Source: Yuukianura sp. NJ FZ-2021 (Eukaryota). Taken from it: 64,000 bases of DNA. The notes beneath the pieces are model-generated. The model ran no database searches and was not told the DNA's origin. It worked only from the letters and a program-made list of their open reading frames with translations. The stretch covers positions 7,440,001 to 7,504,000 of the forward strand of contig CM102284.1 in NCBI GenBank assembly GCA_046563655.1, written 5' to 3'. Positions 5,182 through 59,834 of this stretch are shown piece by piece. Within the stretch, counting starts at the first letter, position 1; each line of letters opens with the position of its first letter. The translations under genes were made by a program, and so were the position numbers.

Positions 5182-5696
5182 AATTTCTGAAATTTAACAA
5201 AAAATCACAGATGAATTACTAAAAAATCCAAAATTCTAAACAACGATTCACTTGTATGAGCACAGGAGGAAGTTGAGCTACACACTGAAACCGAATTTAG
5301 GTTTGTAGAGCTAACGGCACTTTTCTTAAGATATTCAATACTAAACTTAAAATTCAATACGACTAATTTTTAAGTACCCAATTGACAGTCAAACAAAAGT
5401 GGAAACAAAATAGCCAATCACCTAAGCATAAAAACTGCCTCCGATTGACAAATATGAGCACAATTTTAGCCAGAGTTAAAAAACGCTGCACAGAACCGAT
5501 CGTTTTTCTAAAACTCAAAATCGTTTTCAAAAAATTTCCTTACCAACGTTCAAAATGTTGATTTTGGACTTTGAGACGTCAATAACTTGCGATGTCCGCG
5601 CTCGGCATGCTTCAGTCAGTCGCTGCGCTGGTGCTGACGAAGCGACGACGCGGTCGTATACTGTAACACTGTCATAAATCGCTGAATCGCTGAAAC

Positions 5697-33428: not shown

Positions 33429-34555
33429 ATGTCACCTAAACTTGCTTTGCTGTTGATTCTACTCTTTGCAGCGAAGGTAGTTCCTCACTCAAACTACACA
33501 AATTGACATCAAAATTTAATTAACAAAGAGTTTTAGTAACTCCGAATGTTTCATTTTGAAAATAGAGTGGAGTTTATGCCCAAGGTAATGCAGAGGAGCA
33601 GAATAGCGCTGCCTACAACTTACAGAATGACATCAAGGAAGTTGTAGCCACCGTAACTACACAATATAATTAAAACGTTTTAATTAATTATTAAATTAAA
33701 TTAATTATTGTAATTGTTAATTGATTAGTACTTGGTGGAGATGACGAACTACCCTCTTGATGATGACATTGAAGCTGCAGCGCGATACGCCGATTCCGGT
33801 CCAATTCCTTATGGAAAGCACCACCATAATTCGCAAGATCGATATGCCCAACTTTTGCAAAAGTTGCAAGAACAGGAACAGCAACTGCAGCAACTCAAGC
33901 AAACAGGAACTGCACAACAGAATCAACAACAGCAACAGAACCAAGGGTCAACAGGAATTCAGCAGGCAAAACAGGAATCGCTGACGTCATCTCCTGCGTC
34001 AGTTCCAGTCGTCGAAGCAACTGCTGCGTCTGCGCCTGCTGTCGCAGCAACTCCAGCCCCTGCAACTCCTGTCCAGCCACTCCAAGAAGCTGTCACATCA
34101 ATTCCAATTATTTTGTCAACATCAACTGCAGCATCACCAGTAGCAATTCCAGCAGCAAGTGCTCCTGCTGCGACCATTTCAACAACGACGCAACTTCCTG
34201 CGTCAACGAGACCAACAGTTGACCCCGTCCATCACATCAATCAAGTCAACAAAATATTGGGCAACGTGGCCAATGGAAACATTGTTGGTAAGTTTAGAAT
34301 CATGACCAATGTTAAGTACCGATAAAAGTTCAGTTTAGTGTAATTACGAATTACTAATTACGAAATACTCAAAGTAATTACGAATTACTTTTAGGAATCG
34401 TCGATGAGTCACTGGCAATCAGAGCTCCAGCACCAGTTCGAAACTTGGTCACAAATATTATGAAAGTCATTTTTTGCAATCCGATTGATCGCCTGTTCGG
34501 CCGATGTGCTCCGAACCAAGTCGATGCTGCGAACAATTCCGTCAAGGGAAAATGA
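33429..34555 (+). CDS. Orphan secreted Gln/Ala/Pro/Thr-rich protein, 4 exons
   Basis: Signal peptide MSPKLALLLILLFAAK|SGVYA; in-frame GT-AG splicing into the 33732 ORF and a final exon with two Cys. Confidence 0.65.
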
Positions 34556-38885: not shown

Positions 38886-40046
38886 TCGTTTTCCGTCGAG
38901 CTTTCTAGATTTTACGGAACCAGTCAAAAGTCCTTAACTAAAAGTCATAAGTCACAGCATCATCAGCCTTAGAGCGAAAGCTTGAAAGGTCAAAGGTCAC
39001 CATCCGAAGGTCAAAGGTCATCAGCGACTTCCGCGGATTCGTCAGTGCCGTTCCCACGTCCCAATCGTATCTAGATCAAAAGGAATTCCACGAACGGGAC
39101 GACCCACTGACATCACCACCAGCTAAACGGCCAGCCGACAACCAACAGGAAGTTCAAACAACCTTTTTCAAAAAACCGCTTTTCTGAAAAACGTTTTTTC
39201 AAAAAGGCTGATGTGATATTTTTGTACAAAGTCAAAGTTTTCCTTCCTCTGCTTAAGCAAACTTGTACAGTCATCTTCTAGGTTAGAATCTTAGGGTTTC
39301 CGGGTATCTTGCATTGGGAGGCTAATTTTACAAATTTTAGGGTTAACACACTTCTAAAAAGTGTTTTTTTGGGACAAATTTTGAGATTTTGAAAAAGCGT
39401 TGCTGGGAATCAATAACGGTGCGCGTCGTTATCAATACAATTAGGTTAAGTTAGACTTACACTTAATTTTAAGTTTTCTGCTTATTTGAACCAAAAAGTG
39501 CAATACTAGCTGTAATCTTGAATCGACTGAGTTCCTCTGTTAGGCTTAAGGCTAGGTTAGGTTCAAATTAGACTTAATTTCTTGAATTGAGTTCAAACAA
39601 AAGAGGAATAAGGTCAGGTCAGTCTTAAGGTCACCGAGACTTCGGTCCCCATCCTCCCCCTTCCCCCCTTGATTTAAGCGCACACAAATTACCTTATAGG
39701 GTTTTACAGACTACGCACAAAAATTTGAACGTAACCAGGAGAGGGCGACTTGTTTTTTAAGAGCAGGCTTTGACAAGACTTAATTTTAATTAACTTAGTT
39801 AATTAAAACTAGGCTTAATTTTTAGTTAGCAGCTAGGGAATCGGGAAAGTACAAACTCCAAAGGGGGAGGATTAGGCTAAGATTGTTAAAAAGTTAAGCT
39901 AAACTTAAGTTTTCGGCTTCGGAGGCATTGAAAAGCTAAACGAATTGTTTTTGGAAAGGAAAAGTTTTGTGGAATTTTTAAGAATTGTAGGAATTTTGTG
40001 GATTTGCAAAAATTTAAGGAATTTAAGTTTTTTCGGGAGTTTGAAT

Positions 40047-40121
40047 TTGTCAGATTTGTATTTGGTAGGATTTGGATTGTCAGATTTGTATTTGGTAGGA
40101 TTTGGATTGTCGGGTTTGGAA
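40047..40121. repeat. Short tandem repeat, 30-bp unit, ~2.5 copies
   Basis: ttgtcagatttgtatttggtaggatttgga repeated. Confidence 0.7.
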
Positions 40122-41179
40122 TAAGTATACTGTATATTCATATCAATAATTGTTAGTGTTAAGAGGTTAAGTGACATTTCCTTAAGTTAATTAAGATTAA
40201 CTTTAATTAGGATCAGGATCAGGATTAAGAGTGACTTCAGTAATCAGGATTAAGAGTGGATTAGGACTAAGTTTGGATTTGGATTAATCTCGGGTTTGGA
40301 TTCACTAGTGAATTTAGCTGCTAAGTTTGTTAGTTTAAGTTAGGTTAATTTGCGCAAAATTTGTTAAGGCAAAGGAGGCCTTAGCAAATCGTAAGAGAAT
40401 CATTTGTTCAAAGGCCTAGGGTTTTACGAGGGTAATTTATTCAATTTTCTCAAATTTTTGAAATTTCGAAATTTCAAATTTTTTCTTTTTCGTAAGACTT
40501 TTTGAAAAAGAGACTTTCCAAAACAAAACAAAAGTTTTAGCTCGTAACTTTTGTTTTAAATTGTAAAAGTTTCTTTTTTTAACTTAAGCTTTGTACCCCC
40601 TTACAACCTTGGTTGCAATTTCTCTAATTTTTAAGGCTTTTTGTAAAAATCAAAATTTCGAACACAAAATTTCACCAATTTTAAAACAACTCAAATTGTT
40701 TAGAAAAATGGTGGTAGGAGCTGCTCAGGTTCGTCTTGCGACTGTGTACGTGGCACAGGTCGCAGCAATTTACTATGTATTAAAATACAAAGTTTGATCT
40801 GTCTCATCTTTTCGTTCTTTTTTTTTCTTTCTTCTCAAAATTTTGGATTTCGTTTTTTAGTTTGTTTTTTAAACATTTTCAAAATAGTTTGAGATTTTAA
40901 GACTATCTGACTATGACTATGCTTTAGCCATTGTATAGAATAGCAGTAACCAGTAACACAAAGTATTCACGATTATCAACAATTTGTCAACGTTCAAATA
41001 ATTTTCGAAAATATTTTCCAAAATTTCCAAAAAAAAAAGTTTGAGTTTTCGATGTTGGAATGTATTTAGCTACCAAGCGTCATAATCTCGAGAATGAGCT
41101 GAAATAAAATTGTTGTCCATTTGCGAAGTTATTCCCGTTTCTGTGCTCGTGAAATTTTGATTTGTGAATGTAACTAAAC

Positions 41180-41411
41180 TATTTATTTATGATATAATAT
41201 CATAATTTAAATATAGTTAACTATTTCCATAACCTTACTGACTTGCACTGTTGAATTTTCAGTGGATTTTGTTCATGCAGTATTTGCCGGACTTCTGTTG
41301 AATTGAGAAAGTTACGCAATTTTCTAATTCCACAAAATCAAATTTTATTGCATATTTCAATACATATTAGCGTGGAGGATACATCACCTCTAGTTAAAAA
41401 TTAAGTAATCA
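41180..41411 (-). pseudogene. Decayed partial duplicate of the 3' part of the 44209-47358 gene
   Basis: 41259-41335 matches 44248-44321 (terminal exon); 41371-41411 matches 45172-45215 (internal exon acceptor). Confidence 0.6.
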
Positions 41412-41595
41412 AGTTTGTTAATTTCATAATATTCTTTCATTCATTGGATATCCAACTGGTTAGAAGTAACTTTTAGCTGGTTTGATTTATTGCGGGTACT
41501 TGGATTCTTCACTATGAATTTAGAAATGCTTTGGCTATGTTTTTTGTAGATGTGGCGTTGAGTACTTCAGTCTTCATCGTCTAATATTTGACTTG

Positions 41596-43757
41596 TTAGC
41601 AGCACGACGGTCCGGGGCAGCACTTCGGTGGACAAGGAGTAACGGACACGAAGCAACTATTCTCTTGCTTGGGCTATAAAATAATGTAGAGCCAATTAGT
41701 AATTAAGAAATCCTTGAATGAATTGAGTAGTTCGGAGGTCATTTACCGGGCAGCATGGCTTCGGAATGCAGCACATCGGAGGCTGCGGAGGAGGGCAACA
41801 TGGAGATGGACAACAGCTTGTGGGGGCTTTTATGTTGACGCAGATTGGTTTCTACAAATAAATAAAAATATGACGATCAGTCAGTGAATCATGGAACTAC
41901 CAGAAATGGGAAGAGAAATGTAATTGATTCGTTACAGGGCATGCGCCAGCTCCACAGCAAGATGGTCTGCATCCACACGGGTCCGGGCATGACAATGGTG
42001 GCGGCTGTCAAACGACAAAGCTTATTTCTTTTGCTTAAATTAGAGAAAATGCTATATATTTTTAATTGCTTACCGGACAGCAGACATCGCTTCCTTCACA
42101 ACGGGGATTGCATGGCTTCACAATGATGCAGGCAGGCGGCAAGGGGTTGCAGCAAGGAATTGGCTAAATTAAAATAAATCAAGCATTAGTTACCTTCATT
42201 TACTAATTAGATGTATTATGTTATCCTGATTAATTCCGGTTAAGCTCCACTTAAGCTCAAAACTTACACAGCAATTCCTTCCAGTTCTTGGCGGCGGAGG
42301 ACAGCAGCTGTGACGAATCGGTCGCACGATCATGGCTGGCGGTGCTGTAAGTTCGAAAAAATCGGAATAAAAGCCTTAAGAATTCAATTCCACTGCTGCC
42401 ATTAAACTTACGACAGCAAGGATCCATGCAACAGCTCATTGTTCGGCGGCGACAAGCTGAAATACAAAGAAATATGTAACAGTGTTTTTGACGTGTAAAT
42501 CTTAAAGTTAAGCTTACGATCAGGGCAACATGGAACTGGATCTGGTCGTGGACAGCAGGCTACGGAAATACGCGAAAACTTTTAGTAACGACGCAAATCT
42601 CAAGTCAAAGTCACACTAACTTTATGTTCAAGTGAAGTACTTACGATCCAGGGCTGGCCCACACGGAGGACAACAAGGAACTGAAGAATGAGAAAGGATT
42701 CAAGTTAACAGCGTGATTTGCAAATTGCCAAAATGTCATCCCAATAAGTTTAAATTGAGAAACATACTTGGACAGCATCTTGGCGGACAAATCGGTGGAG
42801 ACACGACTGAAAACATTAAAACAAAACTTGGGTCAAACTTTAAAAAATACAGTCAACGAAACGATCTACATAAACTGATGAAGTCACTCACCCAGGCACA
42901 TCTTCTTGCAGCATGGAGGTGGACTTTAACAAATTAAAGAAAGTTAGGATTCACAACCAAATCTGATAAATGACATGAACAGTGGATGGCGATATGCCAT
43001 TTTCCAAGAACTTGCAATAATACGTTACCAGCAAGGTGGAGGAATGAAGCATTTTCGTCCAGGACGAATGCACGGATCCGGCTAAAGTACAAAAAAACGC
43101 GAAGTCAAATGCATAGCTAACCGCAATAAATACTTTCAACAATCGAATCTCCTCATCAAGTACTCCAACACCAGCGAAAGTTGGATGTGTGGTCTTACAC
43201 AGCACTAGAATTTAGAAAGGCATTGATTAATAATTACACTTTAGACATAAAAGATTTGTTTGGAATGTCACGTCTAACGTAAAACGTGCACTTACCGGTG
43301 GAGGGCAGCAAACTTTCGGGAAGACGGGCATCCTCGGACAACATTGTGGCGCTGGGGGCTACAAAATGAGGCAGAAATTAAATTGTATCAATTACAAGTT
43401 AAGTTAGAACACAAAATACCAAGAATTCTACTTGAAGTTACTTACACAGCATGGTCTGCAGCAGGGTCGACAAGGATCGGGACAGCACAAAGTCAACCTG
43501 GGAGCTGGGCAGCAAGGTGGAGGCTAAAACACAAAAATCGTTACTTTGGGTAATGGATGATCTCGCGAGATGACTGAATTAAAATGTTACACAACAAGGA
43601 TTGCGTTGTGGACAGCCACCACAACCAGCCCCGCCTCCGAAAACCTACAAACAGAAACCGTTATGCAATTCCTTTGATTCCCTCCTGCGGTTCAGGTTGA
43701 TGTTTCCAGTAAATCAGTTGTCAAAGGTCAACTTACACGTCCGCCTCCGCAACTCAT
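41596..43757 (-). CDS. 16-exon Cys/Pro-rich protein (~295 aa), keratin-associated/sperm-tail Cys-rich-like composition
   Basis: Exons 43757-43737, 43644-43591, 43523-43446, 43358-43296, 43204-43199, 43081-43029, 42923-42892, 42806-42768, 42680-42645, 42559-42518, 42456-42412, 42344-42268, 42163-42074, 42004-41936, 41851-41747, 41673-41596. All are GT-AG and total 888 nt in frame (MSCGGGR...KCCPGPSCC*). Confidence 0.85.
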
Positions 43758-43997
43758 GTTGAATTTGGATGGCTATTCCAAGATTAGTCCGAGAAACTGA
43801 TGAAATGAGTGATGAGATGAAGTACTTTTAGTTTTAGAATTTAAAAAAACAGCGAATTTGGAGATTGAAGAGAGCGGTGGTGGGCGACTGTCTTCGCCGA
43901 GAGACTGGAATGAACTGAAGTTCTTCCTTGACCCTTGACCCCTGCAAAGAAAAGTTTGAGGTTTTGTTTTCCATTGCTATTCGCGTGCTCGAACGAC

Positions 43998-44011
43998 GTC
44001 GCCATGACAAC
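43998..44011. promoter_or_regulatory. Candidate RFX X-box upstream of the Cys/Pro gene
   Basis: GTCGCC-AT-GACAAC fits GYYNYY-N1-3-RRNRAC, ~240 bp upstream of the ATG at 43757. Confidence 0.5.
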
Positions 44012-44208
44012 CTAGTAATGTCATACGTAAGGCATCTTGATGAAAACGGGGACGTTTTTTTTCTTGCAAAAATTTCAGCAGAAATTTTGAGTATTAGTTT
44101 TGAGCAGAAGTATTTTGGGGGAGTTTGGAACTGTCAGATTTGTATACGGTAGGATTTATAATTAAACTATTTATTTAAATAATATAAATAATTAAATGTT
44201 TCTATACT

Positions 44209-47200
44209 TTACTGGTTGCTAAACTTCCTAGAGCACTGCTGAATCTTCAGTGGATTTTGCTCATGAAGTATTTTCCGCACTTCAGTTGAATTGAGAAAGT
44301 GTCGCAATTCCCTAATCACACAAATTGAAAATTGAATTTTAGACCAAATTTCAAAAACAAAGTTTCAAAATTTTTCGAAAAACGTTACCTCACGGGTTCT
44401 GGATCGCTCAAAGACGTTTTGAAATTTTCTTTTTGACGAAAATCGCTTTCAGATTTCTTTTCAATTCGAATCCAAACAGTAACTTGAGGTTGGTGAACAC
44501 AACGGACAGATTTGACCGTATAAAAATTCAATCGAAACAGACTTCCTTCGAAAGCCAGTGGTTTTGGTAGGACAGTCACAATCTAACAAATCATAACAAA
44601 AGACAAGGTCACACAAAGGTCACAATCTTAATTCAAAAGGTCACACGAAAGTTACAATTTTCATTCAAAAGGTCACAGAGGTCACGTACATATTTGAAGT
44701 AAAAGTACTCTTTCACTCCCAGACGCATGAAATCTTGAAGTGCGCTTGAAATTATCAGATTCTTGTCCAATTTCGGCCACCAATTCAACTGGCCAGATTG
44801 ATTTGATGCCGATTTGAATTCAACGGTGAAATTGAGCGCTGAATTTTCCGGAGTGTAGAAAATTTTCGGTTTTTGGCTCAGCGCTGAATCGATGATGATA
44901 CTGGACGTCTGTTGTGGTAAAAATTCAAAACAAGCGATTGAGCAACTCAGGTCAAAGGTCAGTGACCTTGACCTGCATTGAGACATTGTATTTGATGATA
45001 CTAACTTGACATTTTTTGAGTCCAAACTTGTCCTTGAAGCGTTTCGGAATATTTTCTTCGTAAAATGGCGGCATGAAATCAGATGGAAAAACGGAGCGTG
45101 GGAATAGGCGCATGCCGAGTCGTTTTTTGTAATTCTGGTCTTTGTAGGCTTCATCTTCAGAGTAGAGATAACGTGGAGGATACATCAACTCTAGTTAAAA
45201 ATTAAGTGCCAAGTTAGTTAAAGTTAAAGTAATTAGTTCAAATTCAAAGTTAATTATGATTATGATTACTTGGTCGATTGTTGAAATCAAATGCTGGAAC
45301 AATGGAGTGGATTTTGGAAGGCAAAAGCAGCGTCATGTCCACATTTGAACCAATCAGAGGAAACGATGGCGTCTTTGTATCAATTCCATAGAAAAAGTTA
45401 TTGTGCGAATCCAAAATGGCCAATTTTCCAGCCACGGGATCTGAAGCATCAAAATCATGTGTGATCAAAATTTCAAAAGTTTTTCAAAATTTTCAAAATA
45501 CACACCGTAGGCAACTGTCGAATCGCTGCCAAGATGACAGTATTTCCTTGAAATCCTGTGCTTTGACGAGTTGGATTTGTCATTTCCTGGAAGACTTTTC
45601 TGGATATCGTTGTGGACATAGAACAGAGCTTTCGAAAAATTCAAACCTATGGAACCAAAATTAAAAAAATCAGTAAAACAAATTTTTTTGATCATTTGGA
45701 AGTTGAATTTTTGAAAAAAGTGGTCACCAGTATTGTAGGAGTACCAAACTGAGCAATTGTCCCAAACAACAATAGAATCCTCTTCACCAAGTTGCTTGAC
45801 CTGAACATTTCCGGTGACCTTGAGAGTTGAATTCTTGCTTCTCAAAAGCCTTCCAGTGTCCAACGAGTAGTGACTGATGTTGATCTGTTCAAAAAATTGA
45901 ACAAAAAGTACTTCCAGCATCAAAGTTTAGAGTTGACCTTTGACCTACGAGGTCACGGCTTCCGTGCAACGCCAGAATCGTTTCTTGTCTTGGAAAAACG
46001 AGAGCTGAGTGCAGCAAGGTTGAAGTGAAAGGGCGGAGTTCAATTTTCTTGAAAGAAGTTCCAGTGTCAGTTGAAATGAAAACACTGAAATATAGAAAAA
46101 AAAAATTTTTTTTACAAAAAGAAATTTTGAAAAATATGTAGGTTAAATTTTCCCCGAAGCGTCGGAATCATTAATAATTTTTGTTCAAAAAGTATTGATT
46201 TACTCATGTGTGGCTGATCGCTGATTGATGGCCATGACGAGGTCACCGTAAAGACATGTCTGGGTCATTCTATTCTTGCAGCAGTTCTGGGTGACCAATT
46301 TTGTCACAGGGGAGGTCAATCCTAAAAGAATTCAATTTTTTGAAATTTCGAAATTCGAAATCTTGAAATCAAGAAAATTTCAAAATTTTAGTTTGCATTT
46401 CTCTAAAAGTGAACTCCTTACCCCTTGCCAAAGTGTATGAAAGAATGTTTGGATTGAGAATGGGCGATTTGCCTTCGTTGCGATGTGACCTCTCGAGGTC
46501 ACCAACTCTAATGATGAATTGAGATTCGACGATAATCAGAAGCGAGTCAGAAGCGAATTCAAAATCTGTAGCAGAAATCTTTGTAGAATCGTTTCCGGAT
46601 GGCAGAAGTTGACCTTCGAATGTCGTCCGAGGGAGTTTGAAAGGCGGGCAGTATGAAGAGGTCATTCGAAAAGATCCCCAGGTCAAATGAACATACTTGC
46701 TGTAATTGAAACAAAAGTAGATTAGATTTTTAAGAATTATAGTTAAAAAGTAAAATTTAAGAGAACTTTACAATGCGTAAGCTTTGAAGTCCATTCCTAG
46801 TGGAACGTTACATGGTGAAGAAACTAACTTGGCTCGCTTTCCCCATTGAAGCTGAACAGAAAGCACAAAATCCAAACATGAAACTGAAATTTTGAATTTT
46901 TGAATTTAGAAAGTTGATTTGAATGTCCTCACCAGCGGGTAGTCGACTTCGAGCGTCGTGATATTTCCTAAACAAAGTATCAAAAAATGACAAAAAGAAA
47001 TTACTTTTCAAAATAATTTTGAAAAACAAAGGTTCCCTTACCAGGCCATTCTATGAAATTGATATCCATTTGTTTCCAGTAGTCGTAGGCTTTGCTTGTA
47101 TTTCTTTCAGCATGTTCCATTCGATACTTCGGAAGAAAAACAGGATTTACAGGAACATTTCGAACATTGAATTCAATATCTCCGCTAAATGTGCTTGGAT

Positions 47201-47358
47201 TGCTGCAAAATAATAAAAATTATAATTAGTCAACGTCACATCAAAGTAAAGGTCAAAGGTCAAATTTTCTGGTGCTGGATTCATTACCTCTTCACAACTT
47301 CACACACTTTTGAACCCAGAATACCAAAAATAAGTAAAAACGTCACAATTTTCAACAT
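44209..47358 (-). CDS. Large secreted Asp-box/beta-propeller-like protein, possibly CatSper delta/epsilon-related, ~14 exons
   Basis: Signal peptide MLKIVTFLLIFGILGS; Asp-box-like VFISTDTGTSF and WYSYNTGLNF; spliceable to a stop at 44209-44211. The gene is well supported but the family call is tentative. Confidence 0.55.
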
Positions 47359-47509
47359 TTTGAAAAATCGTCCTAAATTCACTGAAAATCTGTAAACGCT
47401 TTTCAAGATTTCAGAGACAGAGGACACACTTTTTGAAATTCAAAAAGTTTCTCTTTCAATTTGAAAATAAAACAAGGCATTCTTGAAATCGCAGCGTTTA
47501 GAGATTGGC

Positions 47510-47524
47510 GTTGCCATGGGCAAC
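47510..47524. promoter_or_regulatory. Palindromic RFX X-box in a bidirectional promoter
   Basis: GTTGCC-ATG-GGCAAC lies midway between divergent ATGs at 47358 and 47665 (CEP19, a ciliary gene). Confidence 0.75.
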
Positions 47525-47664
47525 CAGCTGAATTAAGAAAATCACAACAAATTCCTAATTATTAGCTCGCATTGATACTACAAAACATGTTCGGAATCTT
47601 TTAGTCAATGAAAAGTTCCATCTATTTTGCAAATTTTTTTGTGAATGGTTGTAAAATCTGACAA

Positions 47665-48664
47665 ATGATGTCCGCTGAATCAGCGTCTGAATCAATCTTA
47701 CCTTTGACCTTGGGCATGATCTCTGACCCTCCAAAACTGATTTTAGTGTACAAACTGCATCTTCCCGGGAATGAGCCAAATGAGGGGAAACGTCGCCGAA
47801 GGACAATGCCTTTACGAGACTTCACGGACAAATCGGACATCAAAAAGTTCATCTTCAGTCTTCAGCAGCGACATTCCAAGTTCCTGTCAACAGTTCCACA
47901 AGTGTCACTGGAAAAAACATTACGCATAATTCAATTAGTCCAAGGAGGATTAACTGTTGGTAGTTGTCACTAACCAATTAATAATTGAACTTATAAAACT
48001 TAGGAAACTACTTTTGCTTTCTTACTTTTTAGCTCATGCTGTAAAGTGCGTGGATTCGGAGTTTGGCGTCAGTGGAGACGAAGACTTGAACAAGATTAGT
48101 CCAGAGGAGCTCAAGCGCAAGAAAGACATGATGAGCGAATCTTTTACGAAGCATCTTCTGCGACCTGGTGACCCTGGATATGTTTATGACAAAGAAGTGA
48201 CCTTTGACCCCCGTCCAGGAGCTAAAAGTACATGGGACGAAGAGGAGAGCTCAAAAACCGCTTCCATCAAGTTGTCCAACAATCTAAATACTTCCGCTGC
48301 TGGTGCTGAAACATCCAAATCGAAGAATTCTGAACTTCCAGCGCTCGGAACGACAATTTCTAATAAAAACGAGCCGGAGGAGGTCACAGATGAGAATTCA
48401 GCGAAGGATAAAAAGTCAGACCGGCAGACTTTGGATCCGGCGAATCCGAAATCCCCGAATCATGGTTCGGATCTGGATCCGGTTTCGGATCACGAGACAA
48501 TCGGCAGCGATGACTTTGAATCTGAAGAAGAAGAGGTTCCATTTTCAGGGAAAGAGTTATGCAAGGAATATGACTTCAAAAGAGTCGACACGGCTCCAGC
48601 CGATGACGATGGTGACGACAACAAGGAAAATGACGAAGATGACGACGATTTCTGGAAATTCTAA
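47665..48664 (+). CDS. CEP19: Centrosomal protein 19 with acidic C-terminal extension; exons 47665-47959, 48033-48664
   Basis: PPKLILVY, GKRRRRTMPLRDF, DEDLNKISPEELKRKKDMMSESF, RPGDPGYVYDKEVTF, STWD. Confidence 0.88.
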
Positions 48665-49028
48665 GTACACGAAATGAAAATTGAAACACGCATGAAGGTA
48701 AACCAACTTTATAAACATTCACATTTGTAAAAATCTACTAAAAATTGGTACTTACTAAAAGTTTATAGTAATTACTTTACTAAAGGTAGTATAAGGTCAT
48801 CTGATTAGTCACAGTTGAAGAATCCACTTGTTGAGCAGGTTGAGCTTGAGCAGGTCTGCAGATTGTCACAACTTAAAAGTACTAAAAATTTTTAGTCTTA
48901 ATCTATCGCTTTAAAAAGTTTTACGGTTAAAAGATTCAAGAATGTTTAAAATGGACGGTTCACGATTGGACGGTTGGGCAGTATGGTGCTTTCAATCGCT
49001 GATTGTCCCATGTTATGGCACTTAAAAA

Positions 49029-50713
49029 TCATTGAGCACTGGAAAGTCTTACAATTCCAAGAAAAGTTTTTCCTTGACGATCCGCTTCAATCATTGGAAA
49101 GGAATTGGCAAAGTGTTGCAAGTAGATTTGGTCACCTTCTTCCACATACCTGTAAAAATTAGTATGAAAACGTTTAGTTTGAAACTAATCGACTACTATA
49201 CAATAATTAAGTTTATTTCGACGTTTAATAGTTGATTTTTACTCACCAAGCAACTTGTGTGAAGCAGGTTTGGTAAAAAGTGCTTGGATAAGATGGGACA
49301 CATTCGGCAATTGGAATTGGTCTGCGGATTAAGCCTCCCTTGGCAGGATTCTTCTTGATGTAGATTCGAAAACCCATGGGTGCTGGTCTCTCGTCGACTC
49401 CGAGCGAGAGATGATAGTAAACCTAGAGTAAAAGTTAACATGAACAGTATTGTAAAAATTTCAATGTATTGCCAATATTTTTCAAAATTTTAAGTAAATG
49501 CAGTACCTGAGCGTAGATGAGATGGAGTCCACTTTCTTTGAAAATGACCGAAGTCCGGTTTGCATCCAGAGAGACGTCACGGTACCAGAGATCGTTGAAC
49601 CCAAAGTCCATCCCATCTCCGATATACCAAGGCCCGATTAACTCTACTAGAGAAAGTAATTGATTAACTGTTTCATAAGAAGGTAAATAAAGCTGAGAAT
49701 TAGCTGAGGAGAATACGTACGCTCGGGTTTGTTGATGTCAACGTTGGGTGCCATCGGAATCATGTAGACTGCTCTCGTCTCTAAAAGTTAAAACGAAGTA
49801 CAATCGTCGGTAATTGTTTGAAAAAAAAACGTTGAAAAGTGAAAAGAAGCGTTGTGCTAAAAAGTGGAAACTAAAAGCAGTTAGGAAGAAGTTGTAGTGT
49901 TGCGGACAGAGTAGACGAGGGCTGAAAACGGACAAGTACCGGAAACGTTTGCGTAGGAAGAACAAGAGGAGATAAGTTTGGCTTTAGTAACTCGGCGACG
50001 TGAATTGGCAAGCTTCAACTTAAGGCGAAGACTTTTGACAAGGTCCTTGGATTTTTGAAGCTTAGTTAATTGATCATGTTTACCACGGTCACTACCCTGT
50101 CGGTTCTTCACTCTTCGCCCAAATCGATTTTTCGAGTTCAAGCTTCCATCCGACGATTTCTGAACGTCTCCGCCTTTGCCGGGTGGCAGCGTATTGTTTT
50201 CGGCAGCATCTCTTCGAACTCGGTCTTTTCCAGGAAATGCATCCAATGCTTGGCCAGCCTCGACCGAGTTTACTATGATATTAGGAACTTCGTTGTTGCG
50301 ATCAGGTACGACGACGATAGGAACTTGATTCAAAATTTGAGTAAGCGTAGATTGGTATCCTTGAAGTTGTACTTGCATAATTTCATTCTTCATCTCCAGT
50401 ATCCACAATCTTCGAATCACAATGACAGCAAAGACGCAGAACACAACTGTCATGCCACAAAGGACTTTGAACGTATCATTTGCTGTTGCGTTGACCAGTA
50501 TTCCAGCACTGAAGTTGAGTCTCCGAGTTTCTGTAAAAATTCCAATGTTAAAGCTTAGACCCTGACCGACGTTGTTTAAATCTAGTAATGTCTAAAAATT
50601 CGTCTTTTACTTGAACTCGCAGTGTTTTGTTTCACATTTTGCGTTGTATTCTTTTTATCACAAGGTTCCAGCGGAATCCGTAGAGCACGATTACCGTTCC
50701 CCTCCGTGGCCAT
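49029..50713 (-). CDS. Divergent TNF-superfamily ligand (type II membrane, Eiger-like paralog), multi-exon
   Basis: N-terminal TM (VVFCVFAVIVI), furin-like RVRR, and THD motifs from spliced small exons: IFKESGLHLIYAQVYY, YQTCFTQVAWYVEEGDQIYL, KTFLGIVRL. Confidence 0.75.
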
Positions 50714-51171
50714 GTTGCGTGTCAAGTCCGATGACCTCTGCTCTCAATCCTACAATTCAGTACAATGTCCATGAAATGAAAAAGTAACTTCCAGTGCCAG
50801 TTATTACTTACAATATAAGTGCTGAATACCGTCAATACCGATACAAAAAATAAGTTTTCAATCATGACCCATGACGTACCTTTACAAACTTAAACGTTAC
50901 AGACTGTAACCCCTCCAAATGGATTTCACCAAGTAGTTAATTGAATTGACTAAACTAATTGTAGTTAACTAACTAAACCATAACAAATTAAATTTACAAA
51001 CAAAAGAATCCACAAGTGTTTGTTTTGTTCTTTTGTTTACGCGTTGGTTCTGCGTGAAAAGTGCATGGTGCAGGTGCAATGCAAATTGCAGTGCATGCAC
51101 TCCAAAATGAGTTGAGACGCGACTTTCTCACAAGCGCGGTAAACTGGATGAAATTAGTGTTTGAATAATTT

Positions 51172-51266
51172 ATGTGGTTGGTGTAGGAGTTACTGGCACA
51201 ACCCTTGTCACCCTCTGAATTTGTGTGGTTGGAGTAGCAGTTACTGCACACCACCCTTGTCACCCA
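51172..51266. repeat. Imperfect direct duplication (~45 bp x2)
   Basis: tgtggttggtgtaggagttactggcacaacccttgtcaccc and tgtggttggagtagcagttactgcacaccacccttgtcaccc. Confidence 0.6.
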
Positions 51267-51784
51267 CTCTCATTTTGAACTGAAGTTTAACATTGGGGGA
51301 TAGGCAGAAGACAGGAAAAGTTGACAGGATATTATGCGGTCCAAGAAGGCTCCTCTCCATTTTTCCCGGTTTTTATCTTCCCCTACAAAAAACACACTAG
51401 AGCAAAACCCATATCTGCCTCTTCGCTTCGTATAACCTCCATAGTATAATCTCCGATCTATTTAGTACTTTTCTGCTCTCCCGTCCATCTCCAATGTAAA
51501 AGACTCTTCAAAAATCTTCAACTTTATGCAAACAATTTGGAATTTTAGTTGAAACAATTACTACAAAAGTGACAAATTAAATTAAATGAGATTCAAAATA
51601 GAAACAATTGACTCAAAAATACTGTCAATGCACCATGATTTATTCCTTTGATAATAAAGTTACAATAGCTTTACATTACAATCATGCTTTACTTCTAAAA
51701 ACATTTGAACTGTGGGTTAGTGGCCTTGTCTTATGTTGAGATTCATCGTCAAAGGTCATGCAGAAGACACTGGAATTAGGCAGT

Positions 51785-54700
51785 TTACTCCATCTGAGTC
51801 GAAGAAGTCGTTCGGAGCGATCTAGTTGACGAGATCACCGTAGCTTCATTCTCTGAATTTAGCAGGAGTTCGTAGAAGCTGTTATGATCATGGTACTCCA
51901 GGAACGAGTCAATTTTTCTGTACGTTTCCTTTCCAGCGGCCTTGTACAGTGCTAAAACCATAAAAAATGAAGTTTTTAAGCCATTTCGTAGTAAAATGGC
52001 TCAGGTTGGTAAAAGAAACTCTCTTTGGACTTACTGGATAGGAACATTTTGTGGAATTGCCAAGTGGCAGCATGCTTCTTCCTGAGCAGTAGGAATTCAC
52101 TGTCCTTGACCTCTGACCCGCTGTCCCAACTGAACCCTTCATCTCTACAAGCTCTCATCAGTTGTGAACAAAAAGAGTCCACTATTGCGAGATGCCTCAA
52201 AATTAATTTCAGCACTCCTGCTCCTTTGGTTGAAACACTCACGAAGCAGCTGAAACATGAAATCATACCATCAATTCAGAATTTCATTAATTAAAAGTGA
52301 ATTATGGTTACCTCGAAGCGAGATCGCGCACATAGCGGACAATGGCATCATAAATACTTTGCAAAGTGTCAAGTGATTCCAGCGATGAACAGAATTCGAC
52401 CCAACTGGAGTGGACAATCTCCATGTTCATGTAAACTCTCAACGTTCGAACAAAGTGGAGCAGCTTGTGACGATATATTTGTAGCTTCATCAGTTGACCT
52501 GACCTTGACCCTATGTAAAATACATAACATAAATTAAAACATTTTAAATTTCCAAAATTTTTAAAACTGGTTTGACGAATGCCAATCCAAGATTGCAAAA
52601 ACCTACGTTTTGACTTGAGTAAAATGAAAATTTCGTTGAGAAGTTGTTCGGAACGGGAGAGTTGCATGAAAATTCCAAAGAGACATTCATAGTGGTGGAT
52701 CATATCCTCCGTCAAGATGATATTCAACGGCCAGTCAACAACATAAGTCAGTCTGACAGCATTCAAAAACTGAAATTCTGAAATATGGAAATACACTTTT
52801 CGTTAATTTTCAAAAAAAAAAGCTACTCATATTTTGAAAAATGAAAACTTACCGGAAGAGATACTGCTGCTGCTCTTTCCACTTTCGATTTCCTTCAACT
52901 CCTTCATCATAGTGTCATTGTCATGGGTGAGTACAAATGACAAGTTCTCTGTCAAGGGATCCAAGTCTTGATGGAAAAAGGCTATCGATAAGGCATCGTT
53001 CAAAACGAGTTGAAGTGTTCCAGTCTTCTTGACGAATTCGTGCAATGATTTCACCGGAGATTTTCTCATCTGAAAGTTAAGATTCCATGTGAAATGGCCA
53101 AAACAATTTGGCCAAAAGTGAAATGATCAGAGGTGAAAAGGCCAGAAGTGAAATGGCCAAAAAGTGAAAATATCAGAATTGAAATGGCCAAAAAGTGAAA
53201 AGGCCAAAATCTAAAAACGCCAAAAAGAAAATGGCCAAAAAGTGAAATGACCAAAAAGTGAAAACGTCAAAAAGTGAAAAGGCCAAAATATGAAAAGGCC
53301 AGAAAGTGAAAAGACCGGAATTAGAAAAAAAATACTTTCAGTGGGTAACTCGGTTTTCTACATTTTTTTTTAAAACAGATATAACCCCCTGCCATGAAAA
53401 TATATTCTTTTGCCATCCGCTTAAAATATTTCGAATTTTTAGAAGATGTAGAAAATGGGAAAAATACTCCATGTTAACTTTTTCTAAACAAACAAATCCC
53501 ATTTTTTGAAAGTTATAACCTATAACTTTCCTATAACCTAACCTATAACAAAATTGTTTAAGCAGTTAAAGACGTAACCTAACTTAACAAAATATAAGCT
53601 AAGACATATTTTGAGAAAAAATTAACGTGTGACCTTATAGCAAAATTGCATTTTTCATAATTTTCTGAAAATTCGAAGTTTTTGAGAGCGGGCCAAAAAA
53701 TATTTTTTTTCATGGTCAGGAGTTCATATTTGCAATTAAAAATAGAAAATAAACAAAATGCGAGTTATCCACTGAAAGTAATTCTTTTCCTAATTCTGGT
53801 CTTTTCACTTTTTGGCGTTTTCATATTTTGGCCTTTTCACTTTTTGGCGTTTTCACTTTTTGGTCATTTCACTTTTTGGCCATTTTCTTTTTGGCGTTTT
53901 TAGATTTTGGCCTTTTCACTTTTTGGCCATTTCAATTTTGATATTTTCACTTTTTGGCGATTTCACTTCTGGCCTTTTCACCTCTGATCATTTCACTTTT
54001 GGCCAAATTGTTTTGACCATTTCACCTGCTACGGAAAGTTAATTCCAATTACGAAGTGCAAATTTTGATTCAAAATCGATTTGATCTTGACTTACTTCAT
54101 CAATTAAAACCGCCGTCAAGGAATGCCCAAACACTCCATTTTGAAGTAACAGAAACTCATTCATGGCGGCCAAATGATGAAACAGTTGTTTTTCCTTTAC
54201 GAAGTAATACAACAATGCTGTGTTGACCATCTTGTGTCTACATTAGAACAAAAGCAGAGGTTATCATTATCATAATCGTTAAAATTCAAATTGGCAATAC
54301 ATTTTTTTTTCAAAATGTGATTTTCAACATTTCAAGGAAGGAAACTTACTGCGCTTGCAATGGAATCGAAATGCTTTGAGTAAAAAGCAAGTTGAGGAAT
54401 GAGGCATCTACTGGAGCCGATTTTGAAACAGTGTCCGGGTCAGTTTTGGAGCAAATCGACGCATCAGCATTTGGTTTTTCTGAAAATCAGACACAAAAAA
54501 AATTGTAGATTGATTCAAACTAATTGGTTTTCAATTTAATTTTCAGAGTTTGAATTACCATAAAATATTTTTGGATCAAAATCTGGAAGTGGGATGGGTT
54601 CGGTAAGAATGAATTTTTCTGGATCCAACTTTTCTTCTCCATCTTCAAGCAGGATTTGAGAAGATGCTGGCGTAGCACTAGATGCTGGCAGATGCTGCTT

Positions 54701-56805
54701 GAAAGCAAGTATTTCCTCGATTGTTTTGGCAGTCTTTTTGTTGTAATTCCTTTTCCGAGTTCTTACTCTTGATTGTTTCTTTGAACTGTTTTTAGACGAA
54801 TCTACTTCATCTAAATCTTGGGTAACTTTTTGTACCAAAGCGACCTTTGAACCTTCAGTTTTCTTATTATCTTCAAGAATTTGTGCTTGATCCAGCACTG
54901 GAACAGATACAAATACCGAAGTATCTTCGTCGATTGCAGTCTCTGTATTGATTGGCGTAATTTCTACACCTAGTGCTTCTAAGTCCAGCGATCTATGCTT
55001 TCTTCCAGTCCCGTCTGGCTCTGTACTTGGAAAATACTTTTTCCGAAATCTGACTTTCTCAGCGTCGTGTTCCTTTTCCTTCCGTTCGTTGTACTCTGCA
55101 TTGGATTTCGTCTCTGAATCGTCTCTTTCCTTTTCAGATGCTTTGAGAATCTTGGCTTCTTCGACTTGTTCTTGAAGTGATAGTCGAAATCTTCTTTGTT
55201 GGGATCGCTTACGAGATAAACTTTGGAGTTTTGATTCCGCTGATTTAACAAAATAGGCTTCACGAATTGAATTTACAGTATTGAAATCCAGTTGAACTTC
55301 CTTGAACGCCTTGGAGAGGACATTGGCAATTGATTCCTTGATTCCATTTGTTAGATGCTCATTTTGTGATAAGAATTGGCTAAGTTTTGAGTCCCATTCA
55401 ACTGTAAGCTGAGGTAAGTCGTCAAACGATTCACACTGTTTCAGAACTTGATTTGTATCGTAAGAAAACAGTGGTGAAATTGATTCAGAGTAATCAATCT
55501 GAAACAAAAAAGTAACAATTTCAATTAAATTGGAATGAAGAGAGACATTCCAGTGGAAGTCTCCATTTTCACTTACATTTTTGATGAGATTGAATAAATG
55601 GATTGCTTTTCCTGTTTCAAAAATCAGATCTGCAGAGTCTTCTATGAAAAGCGGCACGGTGTCGAATTGTACAAATTGTCTCGTCCAAAATCGTCTGTCT
55701 CTGGCAGTTGATTCTGTTTGTGACTTGATATGAAAATCCAAAGGAGAAGCCAGTTCACCACGAAAAATCCAGTCCGAAATGTATCTAAAGGTAACTTAAA
55801 CGTCAGCCAGCTAAATATTGTTCCAACTAAAGTAAAAAGTTATGCCAAGCAGGTTTACTTCGAACTTCATTCGTTCTAAATCGAAAAACGTTGGGTTACC
55901 TCATATAGGTTGAAGCGATTAGCACAAAAAAGCTTCTTAGTAAGTCTTGAACATAGGGTGTTTCTTGTGCGAAAATCATACGATTCAGTTCAGACATCAG
56001 CGTAACCGGGCTCTTATGCATAGCAACTTCGGCTATGTGCTCCAGGACTTGAAACTGTACGTGGTACGCCTAAACCAAAGTAATTTTTAGTAATCAAGAA
56101 GAGATTGCTAAAGTTGAGCTTAAAAAGTCATACTTGGATAAAATTGTGAAGTTTGGTGAACGTTGTGATCGATTTTGAATTGATCATGAGAACGATTTGG
56201 TAGATCTTCAAGTAATCTCCTAAAGCCGTTTGAAATGTAGCGAATATGGTACTTCTGCTTCCTTCTCCATCGGCCAGGAACTGCCCGCTTGCCAACATCA
56301 TGAGTTTCCTGAATCGGCCACCACATTCAATGAATTTTTTGGAGTAGTTGTCCAGAGTACTGGGAGAGAGTCCTTGGACAAGTATGAAGGGATTCCGTTT
56401 GAAGAAGTGGACTTCCTCGGAGCAGAAAGTGAATGACAGTGATTCTCGTCCATTTAGTAGATGAAATAAGTGGGAGATAAATTCCGCCATCGGAATGTAC
56501 TCTGGTTCTCGTGTGGACGATTTCAGCGATGCCATGCTTCCTTCTCCATCGTGAGCAGAGATGACCGCAGCTCGCCAAATGGAATCCACAAAACCAACCC
56601 CATTATTGGCTGTCAAAAACGTTTTATGAGCGTGAGCGACATTCGGATCTCGGTGAGTTCGGATTTCATCCCAACGTTGAATGTATCGGTCATAGTAGGG
56701 AGTTTTAGGATCGTTACTGTCACTGTCTATACTTTCACTTTCCGAATCAATATCGTTGTAACTTCCTAGCTCTTCTGCCGGCGACGTGTAGCCCTCATCT
56801 TCCAT
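51785..56805 (-). CDS. TUBGCP6: Gamma-tubulin complex component 6, multi-exon
   Basis: GRIP motifs RRFWTRQF..VPLFI...IFETGKAIHL, a charged insertion, HLAAMNEFLLLQNGVFGHSL, LTYVVDWPLNIIL, LQIYRHKLLHFV, IVHSSWVEF. Confidence 0.82.
53081..54033. mobile_element. Foldback/MULE-like non-autonomous element in a TUBGCP6 intron
   Basis: Inverted arms of ~400 bp whose outer parts consist of ggccaaaaagtgaaa subrepeats, central AACCT motifs, and a 9-bp direct repeat gaaagttaa at 53072-53080 and 54034-54042. Confidence 0.85.
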
Positions 56806-57030
56806 TGTTCTGTTTGGGACAATACACAATATGTAAATTAGTTGCAGCAAACAACTGGTTTAGTTCTTTTCTTTTCAATCAACTTTCAAATCGACAATTT
56901 CAATCCACAACTCGCTTTATTCCAACTTTACCTGCTCAAGATGTAAACGCCTTGCTGTTAATTGGCTTGATCCTCTTCCTAATTAGTAATTAAGTTAATT
57001 AACACCTTGTTAAGCTAAAATTAACTTTAA

Positions 57031-57393
57031 CCGTATGGGTGCCACTGGTGTCACAATTTGTGACACACGTCGGAGTAGTGCCAAATTTTTGAAAGAAATT
57101 GTGACGTAGAAGGTGGGGGATTTTATATGTCACGGGAAATATTTTTGGCTGCACAAACGGACCCCAAACAACACCCTACACGCCTCCATATGCAGAGGCG
57201 GATTTTTTAAAATAAAAGCGTCAAAATTTTGCCATACATTCCCCCGTGTCACAATTTGTGACACCCATGGTCAACACGCGTTGTCAGCTGTGTCACAATT
57301 TGTGACAACTTTTTCTATGAAGACTAGCCTATGGTACTTTTTGTGCCTCGACTAGTAGCACCGACCGTGACAAAACCGATGGTAGCCGTACGG
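57031..57393. mobile_element. MITE flanked by TTAA (piggyBac-like)
   Basis: ttaa|ccgtatgggtgcca...tggtagccgtacgg|ttaa, with three internal gtgtcacaatttgtgaca palindromes. Confidence 0.7.
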
Positions 57394-57644
57394 TTAATTG
57401 ATTGAAAAACAAAAAATAAACAAACACTTTTTGCTTGTTTTCTTTTTGTAATATGAAATTCGCGGGTTCAAATTCAAAATATGCCGAATTTGAAGGGAGA
57501 CAAACACGAGGATTTTTTTTTTACCATTTCTTGCGTCAAACTCAAATTAATTTTAAACTTTTCTGTTGCTGATTATGATTTTTTGAAATTAGCTTTCGAC
57601 TTGTCATTCGAATTATCTGACGTCAAGTTACCATTACAAAACAG

Positions 57645-57960
57645 GGTTGAAGTAAACTTTGAGGCAGTCCGTTGTACCCCCCAAATTGCATTGTATTGTA
57701 CCCCCCCATTATAATCCGTGGCGGCAATTTCAAAAAAGCAACAAATCGCCCCCTCTATTGTTGGTTAGGTTAGGTTAGGTTAACATAACCTAACTAAGGA
57801 CGGGGGGTACAGTTCATAAATCTATGCGCAACTGAACAAATCAACAGTAGAGGGGGCGATTTGTTGTTTTTTTGAATTTGCCGCCACGGATTATAATGGG
57901 GGGGTACAATACAATGCAATTTGGGGGGTACAACGGACTGCCTCAAAGTTTACTTCGACC
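57645..57960. mobile_element. MITE with ~110-bp TIRs and 8-bp TSD (GG..CC ends, Merlin- or MULE-like)
   Basis: Near-perfect TIRs ggttgaagtaaactttgaggcagtccg...; TSD caaaacag at 57637-57644 and 57961-57968; central ggttaggttaggttagg. Confidence 0.88.
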
Positions 57961-58278
57961 CAAAACAGACTTTCATTACAAATTGACTGACAGAGTAATT
58001 AATTGCCGTTTGTATCAGACGTTTGTATCAGGCGTGTTGTAAAGACTACCGGAGGTCAAAGGTCAGGAGAGTCTCCTGAGGAAACTAGTCGACATCTTCC
58101 CTTTTGCGCTGGCTGTAGTCGCTCTTGTTACGTTTTAAAAGGTACATAATAAGTACATATGTAAAGTAAATGTGCTTATTATGATTGATTTATTAGTGTC
58201 AGTGTTTCACTGCTTCAGTTTACGACTTTTGGTGTATTTACAGTTAACAGTGCGGAAACCGGAAGCTAAAGAGCTAAA

Positions 58279-59834
58279 ATGAATCATGCTCATGAGCACG
58301 ACTCGGACTCCGATTTGCTGAATCGTATCAAGGAGGGAGAACGACGGCGACATTTGAGTCCTCAGGAAGAACTGATTCATAAGAAACACATGGAATACCA
58401 TGAGAAACATAAGGGACATGAACAGGTTCGCTTAACAGAAACAATTAGTTTTAACTTGATCAAGTATTGCCTAACATGTCCTTGTTTTTCAAAAACAGAT
58501 GCATTTGGAGATGTTCTTGATCCTGATCATTACGCTTCTCATTGCTCAAGTTATTTTAGTGGAATGGAAAAAGCGGCATTACCGGTAAGCGATATGGGAT
58601 GATTCACGCTGTATAAAATTAGACTTGGGAATTCGCCCTATACAGTACTAGTATTTTGTATTCTCTGTTTATTGCAGATCCTACATGATTACAACACTCA
58701 CGTGCATGTGGATGGTTCCCATAAGTTTTAGCATTTACAACTACTGGCTCCGTTTTATCATTTCTTGGATAATTTTTACCGCTATGTCTGGTTTCATCTT
58801 TTCCAAAGTTCTGGAGAAACCACTGAACCCAACGACACCTCGTTTAGTTTACGTAAGTGCTCAGGTCAAGGAATACTTGAGAATGTAAATGAACTTGACA
58901 AGCACATTTGTAAAAACTACATTAATTATTTTTTTTGTTTTGTTTCTCAGAAATGGTTGTATTTAGTCCACAAAGTTTCGTATGGCATGGGAATCGTGGG
59001 GTACATCGTCATGATGTTCACCATCCTCGGGCTCAACTTTGTCTTCAATGCAGATCCACACACTTGGATGGATTTTGCAGTAATGATGCTTTTCTATGGC
59101 ATTTACTACGGTGTGCTCGGGAGAGATCTGGCCGAGATCTGTTCAGATAAAATGGCCATGAAAATCGGTAAACACAAACCAATTACATACGGTCTTTTAC
59201 AAACAAAAAAGGCTTTGCTAATCAAAAAATTGTTCCAGGGTACATTGCTAATGGCGGCTTCCCATCAAAGACACCCGACGAGAAGATTTGTGCTATTTGT
59301 GGAAACCAACTTCTAGTCACCGTGGAAGAGGAAGGTGTGCTGGAAAACACTTTTAAGCTCCCCTGCGGTCACGTCTTTCACGAATTTTGTATTCGGGGGT
59401 GGTGCATCGTTGGAAAGAAGCAGACATGTCCATTTTGTAATGAAAAAGTCGACTTGAAGCGAATTGTCAATAATTTCTGGTACTTGAATTTACTACTCAA
59501 ACTCACGCCTCACTCGTCCTCGTAAAACTTTTGTAAGCTGATTGAGTTGACAGCATTTAATCAGTATATTTTGTGTGTGACGTTTAGGGAGAAACCTCAT
59601 CTACTTTATGGTCAACTCCTCGACTGGGTGCGATGGCTCGTCGCTTGGCAGCCAGGTATGACATATCACTCACTCGGAGTCAAAATTTTTGACTTGGAGT
59701 CAAAATCTTTTGCATTGCGGGATAAAAATTTTTGACTTGAGGTCAAAATGTCGGATCATAATATCTCATTTTTCTTTGTTTCAGCTATTTATTTCTTCGT
59801 CCAAGGAATCAACTGGTCTCTTGGACTTCACTAA
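58279..59834 (+). CDS. RNF121: RING finger protein 121/175-type membrane E3 ligase, multi-exon
   Basis: HEKHKGHEQMHLEM, TTPRLVYKW, FYGIYYGVLGRD, CAICG...LPCGHVFHEFCIRGWCIVGKKQTCPFCNEKVDL, YGQLLDWVRWLVAWQP. Confidence 0.93.

Follow-up and report, generated by a model that had tools for sequence, protein, structure and literature searches.

Disulfide cross-linking into an insoluble matrix is the accepted mode of action of the mammalian ultra-high-sulfur keratin-associated proteins (KAPs), of mammalian SMCP (sperm mitochondria-associated cysteine-rich protein), which belongs to the sperm mitochondrial capsule, and of the Mst(3)CGP proteins of the Drosophila sperm tail. KAPs are encoded by intronless genes and have pentads with proline as the fourth residue, and SMCP is an intracellular Cys/Pro-rich protein made of PCCP and CCP units, which has no signal peptide and whose coding sequence is not divided among many exons. 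The Mst(3)CGP proteins (Mst84D, Mst87F and Mst98C) are rich in cysteine and serve as intracellular structural proteins in the male germ line, and their genes have few introns. The same is usually true of the metallothioneins, which are small, hold their cysteines mainly in C-x-C and C-x-x-C arrays and contain few hydrophobic residues. Genes composed of very short exons are found in schistosomes, where, according to an excerpt of one report, the micro-exon genes (MEGs) have exons of 3–81 bp and introns that are long, reaching 5 kb, and their products are secreted (PMC10526429). Here, we describe a predicted gene on the minus strand (43757–41596) of a 64,000-nucleotide stretch of DNA (contig CM102284.1, positions 7,440,001 to 7,504,000; hereafter the window), whose 16 short exons would encode a protein extremely rich in cysteine and proline. 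In our reading, the locus is a real spliced gene, the product of which would form an intracellular, disulfide-hardened matrix, with the male germ line as its likeliest site; to this reading as a whole we assign a probability of about 0.5.

The predicted protein of 295 residues contains 74 Cys (25.1%) and 87 Pro (29.5%), which together make up 54% of its residues; an earlier note on this DNA, made by inspection, had given the same two counts as approximate, and they proved to be exact. The note had further described the protein as built from CCP, PCC and PPPCC units, which were found 20, 14 and 4 times, respectively. The CC doublets, 27 in number, hold 54 of the 74 cysteines, and there is no CCC; one doublet has no residue after it, and in the other 26, proline comes next 20 times. 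A proline stands directly before 14 doublets. The chain carries 29 Lys and Arg versus 10 Asp and Glu (pI ~8.5, mass ~30.8 kDa), with four aromatic residues and 41 residues of Val, Ile, Leu, Met or Phe.

Judged by these motifs, the predicted protein is nearest to SMCP, with proline directly after CC, although the resemblance is one of motif only and SMCP is the shorter protein. Among the papers listed under the SMCP name, and as far as their excerpts go, only mammals are dealt with. KAPs likewise have CC doublets with proline nearby, but here the proline directly follows the doublet and the gene has 15 introns; the Pfam families Keratin_B2 and Keratin_B2_2 were not matched by seven exon peptides of 21–35 residues, which are short queries. 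With respect to possible regulation, the nearest system may be Mst(3)CGP, owing to a motif in the leader described below; however, the Cys-Gly-Pro (CGP) repeat that defines those proteins occurs only once in the 295 residues. The many very short, mostly symmetric exons recall the schistosome MEGs, and 14 of the 16 are no longer than 81 nt (the remaining two measure 90 and 105 nt), but the introns here are of 61–117 nt and there is no signal-like N-terminus. The likeness to metallothioneins is confined to the high cysteine content, whereas cysteine spacing, proline, size and hydrophobic content all differ. In summary, on the tests run, the gene does not appear to be a member of the SMCP, Mst(3)CGP or MEG families. 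The kind of protein is a known one, and what is unusual is the structure of the gene, in which introns number one for every 59 coding bases and one exon consists of just the 6 nt for Cys-Cys; on the present evidence, it is not a new kind of system.

Exon structure and gene ends

The minus strand was read and the exons were joined by script into one frame of 888 nt, consisting of 295 codons and a TAA stop. The 16 exons, the GT-AG borders of every intron and the 888-nt frame reported in the earlier note were thereby reproduced exactly. Exon 1, of which the coding part starts with the ATG, lies at 43737–43757 (21 nt; all on the minus strand), followed by exon 2 at 43591–43644 (54 nt), exon 3 at 43446–43523 (78 nt), exon 4 at 43296–43358 (63 nt), exon 5 at 43199–43204 (6 nt), exon 6 at 43029–43081 (53 nt), exon 7 at 42892–42923 (32 nt), exon 8 at 42768–42806 (39 nt), exon 9 at 42645–42680 (36 nt), exon 10 at 42518–42559 (42 nt), exon 11 at 42412–42456 (45 nt), exon 12 at 42268–42344 (77 nt), exon 13 at 42074–42163 (90 nt), exon 14 at 41936–42004 (69 nt), exon 15, the longest, at 41747–41851 (105 nt) and exon 16, which includes the TAA, at 41596–41673 (78 nt). 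The 15 introns of this spliced model measure 61–117 nt, 11 of the 14 internal exons are divisible by three, and exon borders often directly adjoin a CC doublet. The note's label of a micro-exon gene is a loose one; only four of the 16 exons are of 36 nt or less. Its statement that the track of open reading frames (ORFs) misses the gene holds, as a stop-to-stop listing returns only fragments of 36–100 residues, which consist in part of intron.

Several features of the sequence suggest that the locus is, with high probability, a real spliced protein-coding gene. The GC content is 0.582 in the exons versus 0.327 in the introns. Donors begin with GTAA in 13 of the 15 introns and with GTRAG in ten, the background frequency of GTAAG being 0.0009 per window position, and the acceptors (nine TAG, five CAG and one AAG) are preceded in every intron by tracts of 67–93% pyrimidine. 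As a yardstick, we used a gene at 58.3–59.8 kb on the plus strand, the exons of which had been delimited independently through conservation with a related contig (L001, described below); it shows gaps of 66–117 nt, GTAAG-type donors and T-rich YAG acceptors. The third-position GC content of the joined exons is 0.47, and the values for seven other coding stretches in the window range from 0.31 to 0.53. In the coding frame, the joined sequence contains only the terminal stop, compared to six and four stops in the other two frames. An open frame alone is little proof, since short exons leave a free choice among GT and AG dinucleotides by which stops can be dodged. Retention of an intron would introduce an in-frame stop in 13 of the 15 cases, and the frame therefore needs splicing.

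Other origins for the pattern were tried and rejected. A coding frame on the plus strand was discarded, because only the minus strand fits the splice signals. A satellite or tandem-repeat artefact was also discarded; Tandem Repeats Finder placed no array over the exons, and a BLAST comparison of the sequence with itself gave a single 14-nt match. A recent internal duplication of exon-intron units did not hold either, the best intron pair scoring 15 when the 95th percentile of shuffled sequences was 13 and their maximum was 21. Since there is no repeat and no similarity between introns beyond that of shuffles, the exon-intron units would be old, despite which the frame and each of the 30 splice sites have stayed intact. 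The C/P-rich coding segments on the minus strand at 41.6–43.6 kb are all part of the locus. The sole other match in the window, at 33922 on the minus strand, was rejected as a second C/P-rich gene; it is the antisense of a Gln-rich exon on the plus strand.

The 6-nt exon 5, which encodes Cys-Cys and is in phase 0-0, is preceded by TTCTAG and followed by GTAAGA, and lies between introns of 91 and 117 nt. Across the window's 128,000 strand positions, exon 5 is the only match to AG-TGYTGY-GTRAG; when the six middle positions are left free (AG-N6-GTRAG), there are ten matches. Without this exon, one intron of 214 nt would result, which is outside the 61–117 nt range, and its skipping would preserve the frame. 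Hence, exon 5 is predicted as probably real.

We also looked at both ends of the gene. An initiator (Inr)-like TCAGTT is present at 43795–43800 on the minus strand, the A of which, at 43798, is a candidate transcription start; the window contains no excess of this hexamer (57 observed versus 61 expected). Counted from this A, the leader comprises 41 nt, has no ATG and ends in the start context CAACATG. A candidate polyadenylation signal, AATAAA, lies at 41486–41491 on the minus strand, 105 nt past the stop codon. These ends would fit a compact transcription unit of ~2.3 kb, from near 43798 to 41491–41486.

The same region bears on whether the product might be a secreted, disulfide-cross-linked extracellular structural protein, as in eggshell, cuticle, silk or cement, which would require an upstream signal-peptide exon or another means of export. 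Cys/Pro-rich secreted structural proteins are common in arthropods, and an AG located 16 nt before the ATG could act as an acceptor, with an open frame from there into the ATG. However, the N-terminus that begins with the first ATG has no hydrophobic core (the 11-residue Kyte-Doolittle maximum within the first 40 residues is 1.04), in agreement with the absence of a signal peptide asserted in the earlier note; there is an in-frame TAG six codons upstream of the ATG, the minus-strand frames at 43773–45184 contain no Met followed by a hydrophobic stretch, and the Inr-like site together with the ATG-free 41-nt leader fits a start at exon 1. Secretion of the product is thus an unlikely alternative to an intracellular location.

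The leader contains, at 43761–43772 on the minus strand and directly followed by CAAC and the ATG, a motif that resembles the translational control element (TCE) of Drosophila. According to an excerpt of the report that describes it, the TCE is a 12-nt element, ACATCNAAATTT, of seven Mst(3)CGP sperm-tail genes, in which its location at +28 is invariant; it holds back early translation and raises transcription in the testis (PMC3439415). The motif found here matches ACATCNAAATTT at 10 of the 12 positions and begins at +27 from the Inr-like A, a position that depends on an inferred start. In the whole window, the 10-mer core of the TCE has four matches on the two strands versus 1.78 expected. 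The chance of its occurrence in a 41-nt leader is ~5 in 10,000, estimated post hoc, and, as calculated from the rate of the hexamer in the window, a TCAGTT would lie no more than one base off the right spacing in ~1 of 1,000 cases. The motif would weakly point to the testis. A second exact copy of the 10-mer core is present at 33507–33516 on the plus strand, ~225 nt upstream of the apparent start of the exon of the Gln-rich gene (33.74–34.3 kb). These two matches, the only ones of the four that were looked at, each have an apparent start a short way downstream on their own strand.

The related contig and the 6.9-kb block

A CEP19 frame in the window has a single database relative, which is 66% identical and comes from an 8,585-nt metagenome contig, L001. 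This contig belongs to a related organism and is collinear with the window, as seen from four anchors: L001 357–684 corresponds to window 40360–40797 (87% over 79 nt), 1171–4254 to 47655–50484 (CEP19 and the next gene), 6096–7616 to 58270–59834 (up to 93% amino-acid identity) and 8262–8582 to 60468–60788 (an exon of a TNF-family gene, 81% amino-acid identity). The block that holds the Cys/Pro gene, between the first two anchors (40798–47655), measures 6.86 kb in the window versus ~490 nt in L001. No C/P-rich coding segment was found in L001 in any frame, and a tblastn search of the joined protein against this contig gave only noise (best E 0.53). The Cys/Pro gene is absent from the matching site in the organism of L001. 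With one contig, this may be due to a gain here, a loss there or a location elsewhere in the genome of L001. The earlier note had called the protein lineage-specific, for which the absence at the matching site of a collinear contig provides some support, limited to this site.

Direct repeats surround the gene. Just past its 3′ end, a copy at 41171–41345 on the plus strand has its partner at 44159–44333 (78% over 180 columns), and further collinear pairs are formed by 40025–40103 with 44108–44157 and by 41368–41421 with 45169–45221. These three direct-repeat pieces (78–89% identity) bracket the Cys/Pro gene, and no further copy of them was seen in the window. They could be what is left of a duplication that took place locally, or else a dispersed element present in two copies; no transposon domain was found by Pfam on the long frames of the 6.9-kb block.

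This setting raises the alternative of a non-working locus, which could be an unexpressed or decaying copy in a repeat-flanked insertion or a young locus without an established function. The location of the gene in a block missing from the collinear L001, the collinear direct repeats that bracket this block and the lack of any relative found with single-exon queries would all agree with it. However, there is no damage to the 295-codon frame, its start and stop or any of the 30 splice sites, some of which should be missing if the copy were decaying, and the introns have diverged past any mutual similarity. We consider a non-working locus to be about as improbable as secretion.

Two further observations concern the alignment with L001. 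At 40708–40797 on the plus strand (L001 606–684), an ORF of 29 codons encodes a hydrophobic sequence that resembles a tail anchor and is conserved at 87% DNA identity over 79 nt between unconserved flanks; this ORF may encode a small peptide by itself or be the terminal exon of some larger gene, and it has no match among PDB sequences or in Pfam. A second block that is longer in the window, at 50484–58270, measures 7.8 kb versus 1.8 kb in L001 (4254–6096) and holds a gamma-tubulin-complex gene, for which no counterpart was detected on L001.

Proposed function of the product

We searched for relatives of the predicted protein with single-exon peptides of at most 35 real residues, which are short and compositionally biased queries, so that blanks are weak evidence; the protein database used includes animal proteomes, given that hundreds of vertebrate channels were returned for an exon of a channel gene in the window. 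A phmmer search with exon 15 against 1.84 billion representatives gave no match at E ≤0.001, and a word-indexed search of a 5.8-billion-protein set, restricted to longer proteins, gave no candidate for the exon-15 frame (35 real and 16 intron-encoded residues). With the same frame, a metagenome scan produced 590 pattern matches, none of which was confirmed, and the seven exon peptides (21–35 residues) matched no Pfam family at E up to 10. In a language-model atlas, the cluster nearest to exon 15 was labelled 'keratin-associated protein 5-8-like' (0.82, under the lead threshold of 0.9). Among the papers listed by a search of full-text literature, none dealt with a CC-Pro protein like this one in arthropods, and a search combining keratin-associated protein, testis, insect, cysteine-rich and sperm found nothing. 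Among RNA genes, Rfam had no match in the whole window, and a tRNA scan of 39–48 kb found no gene.

The working unit of the predicted protein would be the Cys-Cys doublet flanked by prolines, repeated 27 times. We propose that a proline-stiffened, basic and unfolded chain would be made in the reducing cytoplasm and that its 27 paired thiols would later be oxidised to inter-chain disulfides, which would lead to an insoluble matrix. By analogy with the systems introduced above, the odds that the product is a disulfide-cross-linked structural protein may be put at about even. Its placement in sperm, be it in the tail or in the mitochondrial sheath, is more tentative and, taken alone, rather unlikely; this site is weakly suggested by analogy together with the weak leader motif. 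The male germ line is our guess because, to our knowledge, the only intracellular matrix of this type in arthropods is that of sperm.

Several points weigh against this reading. The gene model is a prediction from the DNA, and no homologue was found, which is weak evidence considering that the searches were made with single-exon peptides only. Because of the absence in L001, conservation is no guarantee of a function; the gene might have arisen recently or might not be needed. Composition alone is a weak guide to function, similar compositions having arisen independently for different uses, and an upstream signal-peptide exon is possible. As for the leader, the TCE-like motif has two mismatches and was found post hoc, and the TCE itself, which was defined in Drosophila melanogaster, is conserved only ~25% outside the melanogaster subgroup, according to the same excerpt (PMC3439415). 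A drosophilid is an improbable source of this DNA, judging from the identity of at most 50% in the channel exon and from a TNF/Eiger match that reaches only E 6.6e-25 (both described below).

The earlier note had offered a structural or a metal-binding role, of which the structural one is favoured and the other disfavoured. A metallothionein-like or cadmium-responsive protein with one binding unit per exon would be consistent with 25% Cys and with the one-repeat-per-exon cysteine-rich metal-response genes of other invertebrates, but it is the least probable of the alternatives, as one C-x-C and four C-x-x-C spacings (C-x3-C occurs 20 times) versus 27 CC, a proline content of 29% and 41 Val, Ile, Leu, Met or Phe among 295 residues are unlike metal-thiolate cluster proteins.

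Neighbouring genes and significance

The locus has unremarkable animal genes as its neighbours. At 5694–7057 on the plus strand, a K channel of the Shaker type is encoded, with the Pfam domains BTB_2 and Ion_trans; among the matches listed, no protein exceeds 50% identity to its 217-residue exon, the best non-vertebrate one being from a millipede. Either this channel is a paralogue that has diverged or its lineage has been sampled poorly. An exon of a fatty-acid hydroxylase lies at 31.5–32.1 kb and the CEP19-like gene at 47.95–48.66 kb on the plus strand, followed on the minus strand at 52.3–56.9 kb by the divergent gamma-tubulin-complex gene (GCP_C at 52311–52802 and GCP_N at 54536–55795), for the frame of which the nearest atlas clusters are labelled Arthropoda or Rotifera (0.84–0.86). 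The gene used above as a yardstick, which has several exons and a RING-type zinc-finger stretch, is located at 58270–59834 on the plus strand (up to 93% amino-acid identity with L001, introns of 66–117 nt). The TNF-family (Eiger-like) exon, at 60468–61133 on the minus strand, is 81% identical to L001 in protein sequence; its best PDB match is SFRICE_029225 (6i50, insect Eiger-like; E 6.6e-25), a tag that we take to denote a moth, and Drosophila Eiger is matched at 1.2e-17. Together, the channel, gamma-tubulin-complex and TNF matches suggest that the DNA is probably from an arthropod with scant representation in databases.

ORF-based scans miss genes of such a build completely. If expressed, the Cys/Pro gene would provide an invertebrate ultra-high-sulfur intracellular matrix protein with a gene structure unlike that of its mammalian and fly analogues. 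It would be a case for studying the exon-by-exon growth of repeat proteins, as well as the recognition by the spliceosome of a 6-nt exon between introns of 91 and 117 nt. If testis-specific, it would add a convergent example of the disulfide hardening of sperm structures. On a more speculative and, in our judgement, improbable scenario, an arthropod lineage would have gained a CC-Pro gene in the repeat-flanked 6.9-kb block missing from a related species, independently re-inventing the SMCP/KAP type of matrix protein in the form of mini-exons, most of them symmetric (11 of the 14 internal ones) and one of them coding for Cys-Cys alone in 6 nt; cassette splicing could then determine how many cross-linking units each molecule carries. 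If this were true, such cassette splicing would be an intracellular counterpart of the splicing variation of schistosome micro-exon genes.

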